NCBI GenBank assembly: GCA_021818685.1 | Contig: JAKATP010000003.1 | Location: 447-64,446, forward strand | Reading direction: 5' to 3' | DNA from: Bacillota bacterium | GTDB taxonomy: Bacteria > Bacillota > Sulfobacillia > Sulfobacillales > JAIMBI01 | Length of the DNA: 64,000 nucleotides | In this document: positions 4,610 to 61,312 of the stretch, in pieces | Numbering within the stretch: position 1 is the first letter of the stretch | Layout of the letters: each line of letters opens with the position of its first letter | Position numbers and translations under genes: made by a program | The notes under the pieces: generated by a model | The model's database searches: none | Told to the model about the DNA's origin: nothing | What the model saw: only the letters and a program-made list of their open reading frames with translations

Positions 4610-5951
4610 GCCCCCGTCGCCTGGTCCTCACGCCACCGATGGCCGTGGTCACGCCCCCTGGGGTCCCGAATCGACGGTGCCTGCGGCGGGTCGGTCGTCC
4701 ACCCCACAAGCGTGACATCGTAGGGTCCTTGCATGACCCTCTCCGCCTGCTAACCCGCGGCCGGCTGACCATCGTGCCGAAGTGCGCCCCACGCTCCCCG
4801 ATTGCGCAGCACGATACCAGTCGCGTGCCCTCCGACAAGTTCTTTGTCTTGGTAACTCGACCCCTCCCCGGCCGTACGGGATGCACCACGATCGCCAGCC
4901 AAAGAGGCCTACGGGCGCCGTTCCGGCCCCCCGGTCCCAAAATGCACGTCGCAAGAGCCCTGAGCCTCCTGAGATTCTTCGTCGAGGTCTGGAACTCGTA
5001 TCCCATTATATGAGTCGTTTGCCACACTCTGCCATGAAGAGGTTCACCGGCTACGCGCCGCTCGCCTGCAAGGGCCGGAGGTAAAGAGGCCGGGCGAGAC
5101 GAGGGAGATCCGGCCAAGACGCACAGGGCTCCCAGGGCAAGCAGCGCGAGTCGATGGACGACGGGTCGTAATGCCCCAGCGTTCCCGTTCACGGACGGCT
5201 CCAGTAGGCGCGGGTGATCGGAGTCGCCGCCTAAAATGCAAAACGTGGTGGAACCCAAGGTGGTGCTGCCGCCGCCCGACGACCGCGGACGGCCCTTCAT
5301 CCGCGGGAATCGCGAGAACGCACGTCGGTTGTAGCCGCGTGATGAACAGCGACAGGCGATGCCCTTGCAAAGGGCTTAGGCGATGCGGTGTCATAAAAAG
5401 GGCTCGCGGTCTTGAGATCGGATAAGAGTGCCCGGGTCCCGCCTGCACGATGGCCGTTGACCGTTCCTCACCCCTGGCAGGACATGGCGGCACGGCCCTT
5501 ACCCCCACGTTTTCTGCGCGTCAGGGGCGGCCACGGTCGGGCGTGCCGTGGCGCCTCGGGTTTATGGAGAAGACCGGTGCCGGTCCCCGGCGCGATTGGC
5601 GGCGGAATTGGAACCCGCGCCCATGCCCGCGCAATAAAGCATTCCCTCTTCCTGCAGTACCGTGTGGCGTGGGAAGCTCTGGGGACCGCGCGTGGAACGC
5701 GTCGCGCCGCCACTTCCGCCAGGAATCGGCGACTGCACCTGCTCCCGCCGTCCATCAGACGATGGCACGGCCCTGGCGTCATCGGAAGACCGCCTAAAAG
5801 GCGCCGATGATGGCTGATGACGGAGGAAGCCTTCGAGACGGTCCGTGCCGACCGGAGCACTCAGGGCATCGGGTTCCCGAGGATCCCCTGTCCGCTCCCT
5901 CCCCTCTGCCGACGCCACGGGACCCCCGACACGGTCCCGGAACCCTGTCCC

Positions 5952-9295: not shown

Positions 9296-10027
9296 TCAGA
9301 AGAAATCAATCCGCTCAAGGGTCAGACCATGAGGCGGCGCCAGTTCGGCCGTTTTGAACCCCGGCGCGGACGCCAGGCCCGCGGCTACCAAGCCGGGACG
9401 TCTCCCACTGACGTCCGCGACCATGGATCCCACCATCAACCGCACCATGTGGTAGAGAAACCCGCTGCCGGTCACCCGGAACACAAACGCGCCTCGCTCC
9501 GCGTGCCAGCGAGCGCTCAGGATGGTGCGCACCGTTGTCCGCGCTGCCGACCCCTCGCCACGAAAGGCGTAGAAGTCGTGCGTGCCCACAAACAGACGGG
9601 CCCGATTGTCCAACGCCTGCAGGGAAACGGGAGCCGACACGGCCCAGCTGTGGGCGGACAACCACAAATCGGTACTGCCGCCAGGTACGATGCGGTAAGA
9701 ATAGGTTTTCGAGCCGGCGTGCCGGATGTCGATATCATCCGGCACGACCGTGATGGTCCGCACGCGCACATCTTGGGGCAGGCGGCCATTCAAGGCCGGA
9801 AGCAGGCGGCCGGGCGGCACCGCACAGTCATCGGGGCACCACAGGGCCACCTGCCCTTGTGCGTGGACGCCCGCATCCGTGCGGCTCGCGCCGGCCACGG
9901 CTGCGCGCCGCCCGGTAAGCTGCCACAGGGCCTCTTCCACCACTCCCTGCACCGTCCGCCGGCCGGGTTGACGCTGGAAACCGTGAAAGCCAGCCCCTTC
10001 GTAGGCGAGGACCAGTTTGTAGGCCAT
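9296..10027 (-). CDS. truA: tRNA pseudouridine(38-40) synthase TruA
   Basis: 243 aa. MAYKLVLAYEGAGFHGFQRQ and the catalytic ASRTDAGVHAQGQV motif. Confidence 0.9.
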   Translation of the reverse strand: MAYKLVLAYEGAGFHGFQRQPGRRTVQGVVEEALWQLTGRRAAVAGASRTDAGVHAQGQVALWCPDDCAVPPGRLLPALNGRLPQDVRVRTITVVPDDIDIRHAGSKTYSYRIVPGGSTDLWLSAHSWAVSAPVSLQALDNRARLFVGTHDFYAFRGEGSAARTTVRTILSARWHAERGAFVFRVTGSGFLYHMVRLMVGSMVADVSGRRPGLVAAGLASAPGFKTAELAPPHGLTLERIDFF

Positions 10028-25808: not shown

Positions 25809-27011
25809 TCAGGCCTTGATGGCCGTGACCACGCCGGCGCCTACTGTCCGTCCACCCTCGCGGATGGCGAAACGCAGGCCTTCCTCCATGGCAATCGGTG
25901 CGATAAGGTCGATACTCATCTTGATGTTGTCGCCCGGAATGACCATCTCGGTCCCTTCCGGCAGCTGCACCACGCCGGTGACGTCGGTGGTCCGGAAGTA
26001 GAACTGGGGCCGGTAACCGTTGAAGAACGGCGTGTGGCGGCCGCCCTCTTCCTTTGTCAGGACGTACACTTCCGCATCGAACTTCGTGTGCGGCTTGATG
26101 CTGCCTGGCTTGGCCAGCACCTGACCCCGCTCGACGTCCTCTTTGTTGATGCCGCGCAGGAGGCAGCCGATGTTGTCCCCGGCCACCGCCAGATCAAGCG
26201 TCTTACGGAACATCTCCACACCGGTCACGATGCTCTTGTCCGCCTGCTGGTGAAGACCGACGATCTCGATCTCGTCGCCCACTTTGACCTGCCCCCGCTC
26301 CACGCGCCCGGTCACAACCGTGCCGCGCCCGGTGATGGAGTGGGTGTCCTCCACGGGCATCAAGAAGGGCTTGTCAGTGTCGCGCACAGGCGTCGGGATG
26401 TACTCGTCCACGGCGTCCATGAGCTCCCAGATCTTGCCGCACCACTCGCAGTCCCGCTTGCCGCAGCCGCATTCGAGCGCCTTTAGCGCCGAACCCGCGA
26501 CGATGGGAATCTCATCGCCGGGGAACTGATACTGGGTGAGAAGTTCCCGCACCTCAAGCTCGACCAGCTCCATGAGCTCGGGATCGTCGACCATGTCGGC
26601 CTTGTTCAAGAACACGACAATGTTGGGCACGCCCACCTGGCGGGCCAGGAGGATGTGTTCGCGGGTCTGAGGCATCGGGCCGTCGGCCGCCGACACCACC
26701 AGAATCGCGCCGTCCATCTGTGCCGCCCCGGTGATCATGTTCTTCACATAGTCGGCGTGACCGGGACAGTCCACATGGGCGTAGTGCCGCTTGTCGGTCT
26801 CGTACTCCACGTGGGCGGTCGCGATGGTGATGCCGCGCTCCCGCTCCTCAGGCGCCCTGTCGATCTGGTCGTACGCGACGAACTCAGCCTGGCCCGCGTT
26901 GGCCAGAACCCTCGTGATGGCGGCGGTCAGCGTGGTTTTCCCATGGTCCACGTGTCCGATGGTTCCGACGTTCACGTGGGGCTTGGTGCGCTCGTACTTC
27001 TTCTTGGCCAT
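25809..27011 (-). CDS. tuf: Elongation factor Tu, with a Cys4 insertion in domain 1
   Basis: 400 aa. [22 protein letters not shown]. Unusual [11 protein letters not shown] at residues 181-191. Confidence 0.98.
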
Positions 27012-38808: not shown

Positions 38809-38940
38809 GGCTCACCTCCTCACAACAAAAAACCTCTGTCCGCCCAAGACAGAGGATCAGTCGCCGCGGCATGCCGCTTTTCTGAAACTCGTCGCCTGGA
38901 CAGGATGATTAAGCACAAAGCCCCTGTCGTCTTGGGCGTC
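38809..38940 (-). promoter_or_regulatory. rplJ (L10) leader with terminator/antiterminator architecture
   Basis: Minus-strand hairpin CCUCUGUC-UUGGGCG-GACAGAGG followed by UUUUUUGUUGUG (38822-38855), just 5' of RBS GAGGAGGUGA. An upstream 9-mer GCCCAAGAC (38929-38937) is perfectly complementary to GUCUUGGGC inside that hairpin. Confidence 0.6.
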
Positions 38941-38946
38941 CGTATA

Positions 38947-38975
38947 GATTTACCACATATGCCGCCGGGCGTAAA
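38947..38975 (-). promoter_or_regulatory. Candidate promoter for rplJL
   Basis: Minus strand TTTACG, 17 nt, TGG-TAAATC (extended -10). Confidence 0.4.
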
Positions 38976-53425: not shown

Positions 53426-53674
53426 CTAAAGCCAGCGGATGATGGGGATGCTCTTCAGCAGCACCGTGATAGCCCCCAGCACGATGCCCACGATGGCGAG
53501 GCCCCGGGCTCCGGGTCTCAGCAAGCCGACGATGCCGGCGACGATCGCGACGAGACCCAGGATATCGCCGAAGGCAATGCCGATGATCGGGATCCAGCTC
53601 AGAACGAAGCCCAACACCCCTGAAAGAGCGGACAGGATTGACCACCCGCTCCGGCTCCGGTACTCGATGTACAT
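53426..53674 (-). CDS. Small membrane protein (DUF4190-like)
   Basis: 82 aa with two Gly/Ile-rich TM helices (VLGFVLSWIPIIGIAFGDILGLVAIVAGIVGLL; LAIVGIVLGAITVLL). Confidence 0.6.
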   Translation of the reverse strand: MYIEYRSRSGWSILSALSGVLGFVLSWIPIIGIAFGDILGLVAIVAGIVGLLRPGARGLAIVGIVLGAITVLLKSIPIIRWL

Positions 53675-53685
53675 GGCTCCCTCCT

Positions 53686-54333
53686 CTATCGGCGATCCGG
53701 GTTTGGCAGCGCGGTGGAATACCGGCCGTAAAACTCGTCGCGCAAGATGCCGTATACGGCAAGGTCAGTGCGGACCCCCTGGTGCACTTCGTGACGCCGG
53801 AGCGTCCCCTCATGCTGGAAGCCCACTTTCTCAAGAAGCCGGAGCGATGCCCGGTTGAACGGGTACACCTCCGCGTAGATGCGATCCAGATCCTCGAGCG
53901 AGAAACCATAATCCAGCATAAGCACGACGGCGTTGGTGGCGACGCCGTGCCGGCGCACATCCTTCTCCCCAATCACGAAGCCGATGGCAGCTCGGCGCGA
54001 GATGCGGCTCATCTCGGCGAGCTCGATATACCCGACCAGGCGATCCCCGTACTCCACGCCGAAGAGCACGAAGTCTTCTGGCGGTTCCCGCACCACTTCC
54101 TCGTAGCGGTGCAAGAAGCGGGCCCGCGACATTCTGGGACCCCATCCCGCCCAGGCATCAATCTCGGCGTCCTGGTGCCATTCGTACAGCTTGTCCAGGT
54201 CCTCAAGATCCAAAGGCCGGATCCTCACGCCATTCCGCTGCAGCACGCGATCGCCCCCGTCGACGTCATCATAGCAAGGTCCTGGGGGCCGGTCCGATCC
54301 GCATGCCAGGCCTGGAAAGCCCTCTGGTACCAT
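53686..54333 (-). CDS. GNAT family N-acetyltransferase (RimJ/RimL-like)
   Basis: VRIRPLDLEDLDKLYEW..GYIELAEMSRISRRAAIGFVIGEKDVRRHGVAT..NRASLRLLEKVGFQHEGTLR. Start is ATG 54333 or GTG 54246. The ORF-track extension to 54522 is rejected. Confidence 0.85.
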   Translation of the reverse strand: MVPEGFPGLACGSDRPPGPCYDDVDGGDRVLQRNGVRIRPLDLEDLDKLYEWHQDAEIDAWAGWGPRMSRARFLHRYEEVVREPPEDFVLFGVEYGDRLVGYIELAEMSRISRRAAIGFVIGEKDVRRHGVATNAVVLMLDYGFSLEDLDRIYAEVYPFNRASLRLLEKVGFQHEGTLRRHEVHQGVRTDLAVYGILRDEFYGRYSTALPNPDRR

Positions 54334-54354
54334 GGGAAGCGCGAGGAGGCAGTC

Positions 54355-54690
54355 ATGGTTCTTCCTGAGGTTGGAGAGGTCACTTTCGACGAGGACGTGC
54401 TCCGCTCGCCCGTGCCGGTGGTGGTCGTGTTCGGGGCGCCTTGGTGACCGCACTGCCGGCGGCTGGGTCCAGTCGCAGAACAGGTGGCAGACCACGTCGG
54501 GGATGGAGTCGTGATGGTGCACGTCGACACCGACGAGGAGCCGGAGTTGGCATCGCGATATCGCGTGGTCGGAATTCCCACGACCATCCGGTTCGTGAGC
54601 GGTGAAGAGACGGGCCGGCTCATAGGCTTCCGATCTGAAGAGGAGCTCACGGCCTTCGCCCGAGGCATTAAGAAGCCGCGGACGGTATAG
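54355..54690 (+). CDS. Thioredoxin with an in-frame TGA (54445-54447) at the first active-site Cys; candidate selenoprotein (W-U-P-H-C), otherwise a pseudogene
   Basis: RBS GAGGAGG lies 4 nt before ATG 54355. Joined translation: MVLPEVGEVTFDEDVLRSPVPVVVVFGAPW*PHCRRLGPVAEQVADHVGDGVVMVHVDTDEEPELASRYRVVGIPTTIRFVSGEETGRLIGFRSEEELTAFARGIKKPRTV. It is colinear with classical Trx (WCGPC, cis-Pro GIPT). Confidence 0.65.
54453..54483 (+). promoter_or_regulatory. SECIS-like stem-loop downstream of the thioredoxin TGA
   Basis: Upper stem GCGGCUG/CAGUCGC (54459-54465 / 54470-54476; 6 Watson-Crick pairs plus 1 G-U) with apical loop GGUC at 54466-54469. That places the loop at +22..+25 from the U of UGA. 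A lower 3-bp stem CUG/CAG lies at 54453-55 / 54481-83. Confidence 0.55.
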
Positions 54691-57129
54691 CTACGGGGAC
54701 GGTTCCGCCCCTGCCGCCGACAGGACCACGATGTTGAGGGTCCGGCCGGGCACGTAAACGACGCGCGCCGGCGGTCCTGACAGCGCGGCTTTAACGCGAT
54801 CCCGCTCCATCGCGAGGGCGACTGCCGCCTCCTCGGGCAGGTCCACGGGTACCGTCATGCGATCGCGCACCCGGCCGTTAACCTGGATTGGAATCTCCAC
54901 CTCGTCGTCCTTCAAGTAGCGCTCGTCTGCGACCGGCCAGGACGCGGTCCAGATCCCGCCCGCATGTCCCGTCCGTTCCCACAGTTCGTCCGCGATCGCG
55001 GGCGTGAACGGCCACAAGAGGATGAGCAGCGTTTCTACGTCCTCTCGGGCGGTTCCGTTCAGGCTGAGAGCATTTACGTATTCCATCAGCGCGGCCACGG
55101 CGGTGTTGTAATGCAGCACCGCGATGTCGCGGGTCACCCGGGCGATGGTGCGGTGACGAATGCGCACCGAGGCCTCGGTCGGCGCACCGCGATACCCCTG
55201 TACAGAAGCGCCGTTCACCAGATCCCACACCCGGTGCAGGAACCGCTCGATACCGCGGATACCCTGATCCGAAAAGTCTGAACCTTCCTGGTAGGGACCC
55301 ATGAACATGAGGTACATGCGAGTAGTGTCGGCGCCATAACGGTCAAAGAGGTGATCGGGGTTCACCACGTTGCCCCGGGACTTTGACATCTTCGCCCCGT
55401 TCATGATCATCATCCCGTGCGCCCGGAATTGCTGAAACGGCTCATCAAACCCAATGACGCCCATTTCCTTCAGCACCATGCACACGAAGCGCGTGTACAA
55501 GAGATGCAGCACCGAGTGCTCCTTGCCACCGATGTACATGTCGACCGGAAGCCACCGGGCTGTCCGTTCCGGGTCCACGATGCCGGCATCGCAGTCGGTG
55601 GAAGGGTAGCGCAGGTAATACCAGGCCGAGTCGAGAAAGTTGTCGGACACGTCGGTCTCCCGCCGCCCCGGCCCCCCGCAGCGGGGACAGGTCGTGTTCA
55701 CAAACTCAGGCACCGCCGCCAGCGGAGACACTCCCGTCCCGGTGGGCCGGAAGTCCTCGACGTAGGGCAGCACCACAGGCAGGTCCTCTTCCGGGACTGG
55801 AACGATACCGCACCGGTCGCAATAGATGAGGGGGATGGGCGGTCCCCAGTAGCGCTGGCGAGAGATGAGCCAGTCACGCAGACGATAGGTCACACGGCGA
55901 TGCCCGAGTCCCTCATGCTCGGCCCACTCGATGACGGCCTCTTTGGCATCCGTACTGGAAAGACCGTCGTAGGGTCCGGAATGAACCACGGTGCCTTCCC
56001 CACCAAACGCCTCGGTGAGCGGTTCTGACAGCCCTCCCGCTGGTGTTACCACCACCGGCGTCGGCAGACCAAATACCTGCGCAAATGCGAAGTCGCGTTC
56101 GTCGTGTGCCGGTACCGCCATGATGGCGCCCGTACCGTAGCTGCCCAGAACATAGTCCGCGACCCAGATGGGAATCTCCTCGCCGGTCGCAAGATTGAGC
56201 GCCCGCGCTCCGGTGTCCACCCCCGTCTTTGCCCGCGTCATGTCCATGCGGTCCGCATCTCGGCGCACTGACGCCTCGCGGACGTAGGCATCCACCGCGG
56301 GCCGCCGGTCCGGCGTCACGATGTCCGCCACCAGAGGGTGCTCCGGCGCCAGGACCATGAAGGACGCGCCATAGATGGTATCGGGGCGCGTCGTGAAAAA
56401 GGCCACTTCGAGCCCGGGGCGGCCCACGACCGGAAATGCCATTTCCAGGCCCTCGCTCCGGCCGATCCAATTGCGCTGGGCGGTCTTCACCACCTCGGAC
56501 CAGTCAAGATCGGGCAGGTGGTCAAGCAACCGGTCAGCATAGCGGGTGATCTTGAGGAACCACTGCTCAAGGTTCTTGGTCACCACAGCCGTCCCGCAGC
56601 GCTCACAGGCTCCTTGGATCACCTGCTCATCCGCCAGCACGGTCAGGCAGGACGGGCACCAGTTAACAGGCGCCATGCGACGCTCTGCCAGACCCCGTTT
56701 GAACATCTGCAGAAAAATCCACTGCGTGAAGCGGTAGTACTCTGGCGACGTGGTATCCACCTCGTGCGACCAGGCGAACCGGCCCTCCATACGGTGGAGT
56801 TGCTCGCGGAAATGGCGAACGTTCTCCGCCACCAGCTGCATCGGATGCTTATTCACTTTGAGCGCAAAGTTCTCACTGTGCATGCCGAATGCGTCAAAAC
56901 CGATGGGCTCAAACACGTCATAGCCGCAGAGCACCTTGTAACGCCCGTGGACGTCCACGCCCGTGAAGGCAAACACGTTGCCGATGTGCAGCCCCTCAGC
57001 GGACGGGTACGGGAACATAAGCAAGTTGTAGAAGGGCCGCGGGGCATGGTCGAGATCTACCTCGCCCACCCCTTCATCCGCCCAGCGCTTCCGCCACTTG
57101 GCCTCGATGGTTCCCGGGTCGTAGCCCAC
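54691..57129 (-). CDS. leuS: Leucine--tRNA ligase
   Basis: 812 aa with a GTG start. HIGH region PYPSAEGLHIGN and KMSKS region GAKMSKSRGN. Confidence 0.97.
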   Translation of the reverse strand: MGYDPGTIEAKWRKRWADEGVGEVDLDHAPRPFYNLLMFPYPSAEGLHIGNVFAFTGVDVHGRYKVLCGYDVFEPIGFDAFGMHSENFALKVNKHPMQLVAENVRHFREQLHRMEGRFAWSHEVDTTSPEYYRFTQWIFLQMFKRGLAERRMAPVNWCPSCLTVLADEQVIQGACERCGTAVVTKNLEQWFLKITRYADRLLDHLPDLDWSEVVKTAQRNWIGRSEGLEMAFPVVGRPGLEVAFFTTRPDTIYGASFMVLAPEHPLVADIVTPDRRPAVDAYVREASVRRDADRMDMTRAKTGVDTGARALNLATGEEIPIWVADYVLGSYGTGAIMAVPAHDERDFAFAQVFGLPTPVVVTPAGGLSEPLTEAFGGEGTVVHSGPYDGLSSTDAKEAVIEWAEHEGLGHRRVTYRLRDWLISRQRYWGPPIPLIYCDRCGIVPVPEEDLPVVLPYVEDFRPTGTGVSPLAAVPEFVNTTCPRCGGPGRRETDVSDNFLDSAWYYLRYPSTDCDAGIVDPERTARWLPVDMYIGGKEHSVLHLLYTRFVCMVLKEMGVIGFDEPFQQFRAHGMMIMNGAKMSKSRGNVVNPDHLFDRYGADTTRMYLMFMGPYQEGSDFSDQGIRGIERFLHRVWDLVNGASVQGYRGAPTEASVRIRHRTIARVTRDIAVLHYNTAVAALMEYVNALSLNGTAREDVETLLILLWPFTPAIADELWERTGHAGGIWTASWPVADERYLKDDEVEIPIQVNGRVRDRMTVPVDLPEEAAVALAMERDRVKAALSGPPARVVYVPGRTLNIVVLSAAGAEPSP

Positions 57130-61060: not shown

Positions 61061-61066
61061 AATCCT

Positions 61067-61219
<153 letters not shown>

Positions 61220-61226
61220 ATATCAA

Positions 61227-61312
61227 TGGTGGAGGGGGTTGGATTCGAACCAACGTAGGCGTAAGCCAGCGATTTTACAGACCGCCCCCTTTAGCCTCTC
61301 GGGCACCCCTCC
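61227..61312 (-). tRNA. tRNA-Tyr (anticodon GUA), class II long variable arm, CCA encoded
   Basis: GGAGGGG TG CCC GAGAGGCTAAA GGG G GCGGT CTGTAAA ATCGC TGGCTTACGCCTAC GTTGG TTCGAAT CCAAC CCCCTCC A CCA. Confidence 0.88.

Follow-up and report, generated by a model that had tools for sequence, protein, structure and literature searches.

The interval 54355..54690 (+) of the window, the whole 64-kb stretch of DNA that was analysed, very probably holds a thioredoxin gene of the selenocysteine type, complete with an in-frame SECIS hairpin, that gene callers have split. A Sec-decoding UxxC thioredoxin rather than a pseudogene had been proposed at this position from the letters alone (hereafter the sequence-only reading). 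The proposal was supported by the conservation of the TGA codon and of the hairpin, by the selection acting on the gene and by the loss of the hairpin in Cys forms. The remaining doubt concerns the inserted residue and the presence of the Sec machinery.

The coding sequence (54355..54690, + strand) was delimited by translation, by its match to PF00085 and by dN/dS. It consists of 111 codons, counting UGA-31, and runs from an ATG at 54355 to a TAG stop codon at 54688..54690. A Shine–Dalgarno sequence, GAGGAGG, is located at 54343..54349 (+); the spacer to the start codon was measured as 5 nt and not 4 nt as first given. The predicted product reads MVLPEVGEVTFDEDVLRSPVPVVVVFGAPW-[TGA]-PHCRRLGPVAEQ...VVGIPTTIRF... 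and is interrupted by one in-frame TGA only, at 54445..54447 (+). This triplet, the proposed Sec codon U31, falls at the nucleophilic Cys of W-C-x-x-C, and the redox centre reads W30-TGA-P-H-C34. The resolving Cys34 of U-P-H-C is encoded by TGC at 54454..54456 (+) and is invariant in 8/8 orthologues. The cis-proline codon (P75 of G-I-P-T) is found at 54577..54579 (+), and G-I/L-P is kept across the alignment. The 111-codon frame, the placement of the TGA at the first Cys and the intact cis-Pro motif described in the sequence-only reading were all verified.

Two long ORFs at the locus were rejected as artefacts. In the ORF at 53638..54447 (+; 269 aa), which is antisense to a GNAT gene, the last 30 codons alone are real, and in that at 53686..54522 (-; 278 aa) the last 186 codons alone are real. 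Over-extended and antisense long ORFs occur near the thioredoxin gene because the DNA has a G+C content of 64%. The expectations that standard callers would miss the gene and that neither ORF piece could fold alone also held: the database entries are fragments and the whole thioredoxin fold is present in neither piece.

Cys was written in place of the TGA for the Pfam profile search. PF00085 (Thioredoxin) was matched with E = 5.6e-22 (78.1 bits versus a cut-off of 23.5), residues 8-102 being aligned on model positions 7-101 of 103. Solved thioredoxins align over product residues 3-102 (for example 6gn9_A, residues 3-101 versus 5-103), and the end-to-end alignment with classical thioredoxin claimed earlier was thus reproduced nearly end to end with solved structures. 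The W-C-x-x-C position and the cis-Pro loop are conserved in the eight orthologues, the first Cys being replaced by a TGA codon in the Sec-type genes. The cut-offs of the thioredoxin equivalog TIGR01068 (76.2 bits versus 96.8) and of TrxA NF006898 (48.7 versus 138) were not reached, and no dedicated NCBIfam selenoprotein model was matched by the window protein. The best full-length Cys thioredoxins outside the clade show about 40-48% identity to it. By these sequence scores the window protein is a divergent member of the thioredoxin family and not a housekeeping TrxA equivalog.

Classical TrxA (E. coli Trx1, PDB 2h73; 6gn9) and the window protein are alike in their fold-length alignment, in the W-C-x-x-C position and in the cis-Pro G-I-P-T, and a signal peptide is absent from both; the window gene differs in having UGA for the first Cys codon and a P-H dipeptide. 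DsbA, a periplasmic protein with an inserted helical domain, has the active site C-P-H-C. The P-H dipeptide between the redox residues is common to DsbA and the window thioredoxin, but the latter has a plain cytoplasmic thioredoxin fold, and the likeness is taken as a lead concerning redox potential and not as membership.

A SECIS-like hairpin was assigned to 54459..54476 (+) on the basis of pairing, conservation and likeness to fdhF. It is formed by a 5' arm GCGGCUG (54459-54465), a GGUC loop (54466-54469) and a 3' arm CAGUCGC (54470-54476). Of its seven pairs one is G.U, and its free energy is -9.9 kcal/mol. It begins 11 nt past the TGA, spans nt 15-32 and places its loop at +22..+25, with G23 at 54467 and U24 at 54468. 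The 7-bp stem, the loop and both distances agree with those in the sequence-only reading. In the bacterial SECIS consensus (PMC13188914), the loop has 3-9 nt, lies 16-37 nt from the UGA and carries a G in its first two positions, the upper stem has 4-16 bp, and the MFE is at most -7.5 kcal/mol. The window hairpin (4-nt loop, 7-bp stem, loop G, 18-nt spacing, -9.9 kcal/mol) lies within all of these published limits.

The E. coli K-12 fdhF gene was read directly; its UGA is codon 140 and a GGUC loop is found at +22..+25, so that the apical GGUC at the same spacing, cited in the sequence-only reading, is confirmed from the gene itself. The upper stem-loop of the fdhF SECIS covers nt 15-31, with conserved G23, U24 and bulged U17 (PMC8659212). 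The 11-nt start, the GGUC at +22..+25 and G23/U24 are common to fdhF and the window hairpin (PMC8659212), whereas the bulged U17 required by E. coli SelB is absent from the window, where position 17 is a paired G. The 7 bp of the window stem are uninterrupted, include one G.U pair and are richer in G+C, and the host protein and organism differ. As judged from this comparison, the window hairpin has the geometry and loop of fdhF without reproducing the E. coli element itself.

For DNA of 64% G+C, the 61-nt region folds with an ordinary energy (z = -0.44). No match covering a SECIS-like family was obtained when the whole window was searched against Rfam at the gathering score, and a permissive Rfam scan of 54300-54750 (E up to 10) gave chance-level matches alone (E of 5 or more). 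The hairpin by itself therefore proves nothing, and the comparative evidence is decisive. Only 0.93% of the synonymous recodings of R-R-L-G-P-V-A retain all seven pairs. Both strands of ~220 kb were scanned for chance occurrences of TGA with an RGUC-looped hairpin (stem of 6 bp or more) 16-24 nt further on; the scan found the thioredoxin loci plus one true stop only. The latter, at 2454 (-) in the window, is a TGATAA at an ORF end followed by a 6-bp hairpin with a GGUC loop, which is a chance or terminator-like hairpin. A screen for other TGA-split ORFs across the window yielded 296 candidates and was uninformative in such G+C-rich DNA.

Close relatives were recovered by protein searches as C-terminal fragments only, because a TGA occurs at the same codon in the DNA upstream of each. 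Counting the window itself (TGA at 54445), six distinct lineages carry a TGA in place of the catalytic Cys codon; their sequences come from assemblies that are independent of one another (NCBI, ENA, JGI and Logan). The others are the related loci L001 (identical to L006; TGA at 5950; 81% protein identity to the window), L002 (assembly GCA_049964315.1; TGA at 5066; 79%), L013 (identical to L014-16; TGA at 9959; 66%), L009 (TGA at 478; 44%) and L017 (identical to L018-19; TGA at 285; 40%). The window's own fragment was found on 23 contigs. No further in-frame stops or frameshifts were present in the six Sec-type lineages, and a GGAGG-type ribosome-binding site precedes the N-terminal start in 8/8 orthologues.

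In L012 (P0301) and L020 (P0300) the orthologous gene, of 106 residues, is uninterrupted and has TGC in place of the TGA. Both read W-C-P-H-C-R-R-L-G-P-V-A and therefore form a Sec/Cys pair with the TGA-containing genes. In all other thioredoxins a Cys of W-C-x-x-C is aligned with the TGA. Further orthologues, at an intermediate distance, are P0302, P0304 and P0305. In a neighbour-joining tree the Cys pair was nested with L017 and L009, with 92% bootstrap for the four; the tree suggests, with moderate support, that Sec is ancestral and Cys derived.

Other candidates were retrieved and set aside. A search of genome contigs with the C-terminal 80 residues returned, among the matches listed, ordinary thioredoxins that are 26-30% identical (L003 and L004), and a metagenome contig search with a three-sequence alignment returned, among the matches listed, one partial 47% match (L005). 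At L007 and L008 (LeuRS identity 73-75%) synteny is lost and the thioredoxin is absent. The fragments P0125 and P0140 from the representative search are not Sec genes, and L011 is a Cys thioredoxin at a contig edge. L010 1707-2089 was considered as a CxxU selenoprotein and rejected, having an N-terminal in-frame TAA and a TGA at the second Cys (W-C-G-P-TGA); this 2.2-kb Logan contig with two stops looks like a pseudogene or an assembly error. P0076 (102 aa) has an aberrant N-terminus, ...FGLHGAAPCRM..., where W-C-x-x-C is expected, and may be another miscalled or recoded thioredoxin. A literature search for the assembly and protein accessions gave no match.

Selection on the protein was estimated as dN/dS by the Nei–Gojobori method, over the first 30 codons, up to the TGA, and over those past the hairpin. 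The values were 0.08-0.38 upstream of the TGA and 0.11-0.19 downstream; those of the Cys–Cys pair (L012/L020), 0.04-0.10, are similar to the Sec-type values. Since dN/dS is low on both sides of the TGA, the whole frame is maintained as protein and decay is ruled out. Extra stops or frameshifts in relatives had been named beforehand as the mark of decay; none were found, and dN/dS stayed at 0.08-0.38.

Selection on the RNA was assessed with a frozen-codon test on codons for which all six Sec-type genes specify one and the same amino acid. Such codons are identical at the nucleotide level in 4/5 cases inside the hairpin versus 1/21 elsewhere (Fisher p=0.0016), and the codons flanking the hairpin (Pro +1, Cys +3 and Ala +10) vary freely. 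All hairpin pair cells are formed across the six sequences (42/42). The sole stem change is G18 to A in L017, by which G.U becomes A-U, and the sole loop change is G22 to A in L009, with G23 and U24 retained. The Sec-type hairpins have a GGUC loop (AGUC in L009), a stem of 7 bp (9 bp in L017) and energies of -9.9 to -10.5 kcal/mol. Compensatory changes in both partners of a pair were absent from the six sequences, the single change from G.U to A-U being the only one at a pair. Of the two signs of a functional hairpin that had been proposed as a check, conservation was thus seen and covariation on both sides of a pair was not.

In the two Cys-type genes R-R-L-G-P-V-A is unchanged, but 5 and 6 nucleotides differ, respectively, and the hairpin is thereby destroyed. 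The codons of the hairpin region are CGA CGG CTA GGG CCG GTG in L012 and CGA AGA CTA GGG CCA GTA in L020, and the energy of the forced hairpin is -1.1 and +2.3 kcal/mol, respectively, versus -9.9 kcal/mol in the window. Over the ten codons after the TGA, the proportion of synonymous differences was 0-0.32 for Sec-type pairs and 0.59-0.83 where a Cys-type gene was in the pair. The hairpin is kept with TGA and lost with TGC, and selection therefore probably holds it only where the codon is TGA. This is the outcome of the comparison of Cys codon and TGA across orthologues that the sequence-only reading had put forward as a check. An overlapping antisense gene was rejected as the cause of the frozen codons: the GNAT gene extends no further than 54246, and no gene was called across the hairpin in the related loci.

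The window and L002 form a mosaic at this locus. The intergenic region and first 30 codons are almost identical (window 54260-54447 versus L002 4881-5068; proportion of synonymous differences 0.30), and the sequences diverge strongly after the hairpin (0.65; about 27% of residues differ). The pattern suggests that recombination took place here, the breakpoint lying close to the SECIS.

Among the ordinary stop codons of the window TGA is the most frequent, ending 21/38 long ORFs, among them an EF-Tu-sized ORF (25809-27011) and the Pfam-confirmed RpoA gene. Global reassignment of TGA was ruled out by this stop-codon usage. tRNA-Sec (selC) was not found in the 64-kb window or, by ARAGORN, in L001, L002 and L006-L008, selA, selB and selD were not found among the 20 window proteins scanned, and the SelA, SelB-wing and AIRS-type Pfam families were not found among the genes called in the related loci. 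The window and related loci cover a small part of a genome, and the absence of sel genes from them says little.

If the gene is decoded as proposed, translation would start at ATG 54355 behind the strong ribosome-binding site and the ribosome would then meet the UGA at 54445-54447. The hairpin at 54459-54476, 11 nt downstream, would present G23 and U24 in its GGUC tetraloop and tether SelB-GTP-Sec-tRNA(Sec), so that the UGA would be decoded as Sec and not as a stop. The product would be a single cytoplasmic thioredoxin of 111 residues whose redox centre reads W-U-P-H-C, U being selenocysteine, and in which Sec31 and Cys34 would cycle via a selenenylsulfide; failed decoding would leave a 30-residue peptide only. 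SelB binding, Sec insertion and the redox chemistry are what we infer from the comparisons above.

The comparative data point to decoding of the UGA and to a need for the hairpin, and not to a particular residue. The UGA might be read through otherwise than as Sec: a near-cognate Trp or Cys tRNA could decode it, or a dedicated UCA-anticodon tRNA charged with Cys and brought in by a SelB-like factor, the hairpin acting as a read-through or recruitment signal. That Sec machinery was seen neither in the window nor in the related loci and that close relatives function with Cys at the same position would both suit such a mechanism, which we nevertheless consider improbable. Recoding of UGA as Cys is very rare; the recoded site is moreover the nucleophilic Cys of a redox motif, a typical Sec site, and the loop carries G23/U24 at the fdhF spacing. 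The hairpin also fits the SelB-type SECIS consensus, and the UxxC thioredoxins are an experimentally verified selenoprotein family (PMC13188914).

It is very improbable that the TGA is a genuine stop which leaves a 30-residue peptide and an internally started C-terminal fragment of 58-68 residues, with a regulatory or attenuator-like hairpin. Gene callers do give C-terminal fragments of 58-73 residues, and a 30-residue product in L006, and TGA is a normal stop in the window's genome. The internal start, however, is unconserved (GTG or ATG at differing codons by lineage), and P-H-C-R-R-L-x-P-V-A, which lies between the TGA and any internal start, is conserved as protein. Neither piece holds a whole fold, whereas the joined product can be aligned with solved thioredoxins from end to end, and the TGC orthologues are single ORFs of equal length. 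A decaying pseudogene, or a TGA introduced by sequencing or assembly error, is scarcely credible. A single in-frame stop does split the gene, and another thioredoxin-like locus, L010, looks decayed (in-frame TAA and TGA), but the same TGA recurs in six lineages from independent assemblies, with the window fragment on 23 contigs. Apart from this TGA the six frames are free of stops and frameshifts, dN/dS stays at 0.08-0.38 both before and after it, and the ribosome-binding sites are intact; as far as sequence data go, decay or error is refuted.

The gene immediately upstream, which is not part of the recoding device, encodes a GNAT acetyltransferase (53686..54246, - strand; 186 aa, GTG start; Acetyltransf_3, E = 1.1e-23) and is divergent from the thioredoxin. 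A GNAT gene (Acetyltransf_3, 186-189 aa) also adjoins the thioredoxin in L001, L002, L006 and L013-16, and a small protein of 82-96 residues without a Pfam match comes after it. The GNAT and small-protein genes together occupy 53426-54246 (-) in the window, 4837-5688 in L001, 4047-4867 in L002, 12947-13798 in L006 and 8869-9752 in L013. All high-G+C lineages keep the GNAT arrangement, including those in which LeuRS, the neighbour on the other side, has given way to PhoU/PHO4; a functional link between GNAT and thioredoxin is possible.

On the other side, the gene for leucyl-tRNA synthetase (LeuRS; 54691-57129, - strand) converges on the thioredoxin gene, and the stop codons abut at 54690/54691. 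The window's LeuRS falls in one 90%-identity cluster with MCL5967092.1. Only relatives whose LeuRS is at least 81% identical, the closest ones, show this adjacency; where the identity is 73-75% a holA-like gene adjoins LeuRS instead, and the next LeuRS relatives, at 61% identity, include Thermaerobacter. Elsewhere in the window a ribosomal protein L10 leader (Rfam RF00557, 48 bits) was found at 38818-38954 (-) in the ribosomal/rpoBC cluster, and a tRNA-Thr/Met/Tyr cluster at 61066-61312 (-), the same trio being present in L006. L006 also carries a Cas3 gene (Cas3_HD, Cas3-like_C_2) at 1-221, at the contig edge; the gene indicates a type I CRISPR-Cas system in this close relative.

Sec-thioredoxins had been described in the sequence-only reading as predicted or shown in a few bacteria, and they have indeed been catalogued since 2005-2006 (PMC1794560, PMC13188914). 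Seven were listed in 2006, among them those of Treponema denticola, Carboxydothermus hydrogenoformans (Firmicutes), Geobacter species and Anaeromyxobacter (PMC1794560), and one Sec-thioredoxin (PF00085, UxxC), WP_010956703.1, has been verified experimentally (PMC13188914). Compared with these by description, the window gene is similar in encoding a single domain of ~110 residues with Sec, in the window gene predicted, for the first (nucleophilic) Cys of CxxC, in having its SECIS hairpin inside the coding sequence directly past the UGA and in having Cys orthologues. It differs from them, again by description, in its dipeptide, P-H (W-U-P-H-C) and not the usual G-P, and in its lineage, an uncultured high-G+C clade labelled Bacillota/Clostridia. 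As a Sec-thioredoxin the window gene is new and unannotated, and the UxxC family and Sec/Cys exchange are already established; the current understanding of both is not overturned.

There is a small chance that the W-U-P-H-C clade is more than routine, either through non-canonical UGA recoding (Cys or another residue, via a SelB-like factor and a UCA-anticodon tRNA) or through the combination of P-H with Sec in a selenenylsulfide catalyst that is cytoplasmic and unusually oxidising. Functional coupling of this catalyst to the divergent GNAT acetyltransferase would then be conceivable, and the U-P-H-C motif is of possible interest for redox-potential engineering. The TGA and TGC orthologues constitute a natural experiment in which the SECIS is left to erode at synonymous sites while the protein sequence is kept, and the contrast points to the nucleotides that are held by RNA function. 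At present, the window gene and its Sec-type orthologues lie in public databases as fragments of 53-73 residues labelled 'thioredoxin family protein', 'thioredoxin 1' or 'thioredoxin-like negative regulator of GroEL'. With corrected annotation an uncultured high-G+C lineage labelled as Bacillota would gain a selenoprotein and, implicitly, the trait of Sec decoding.
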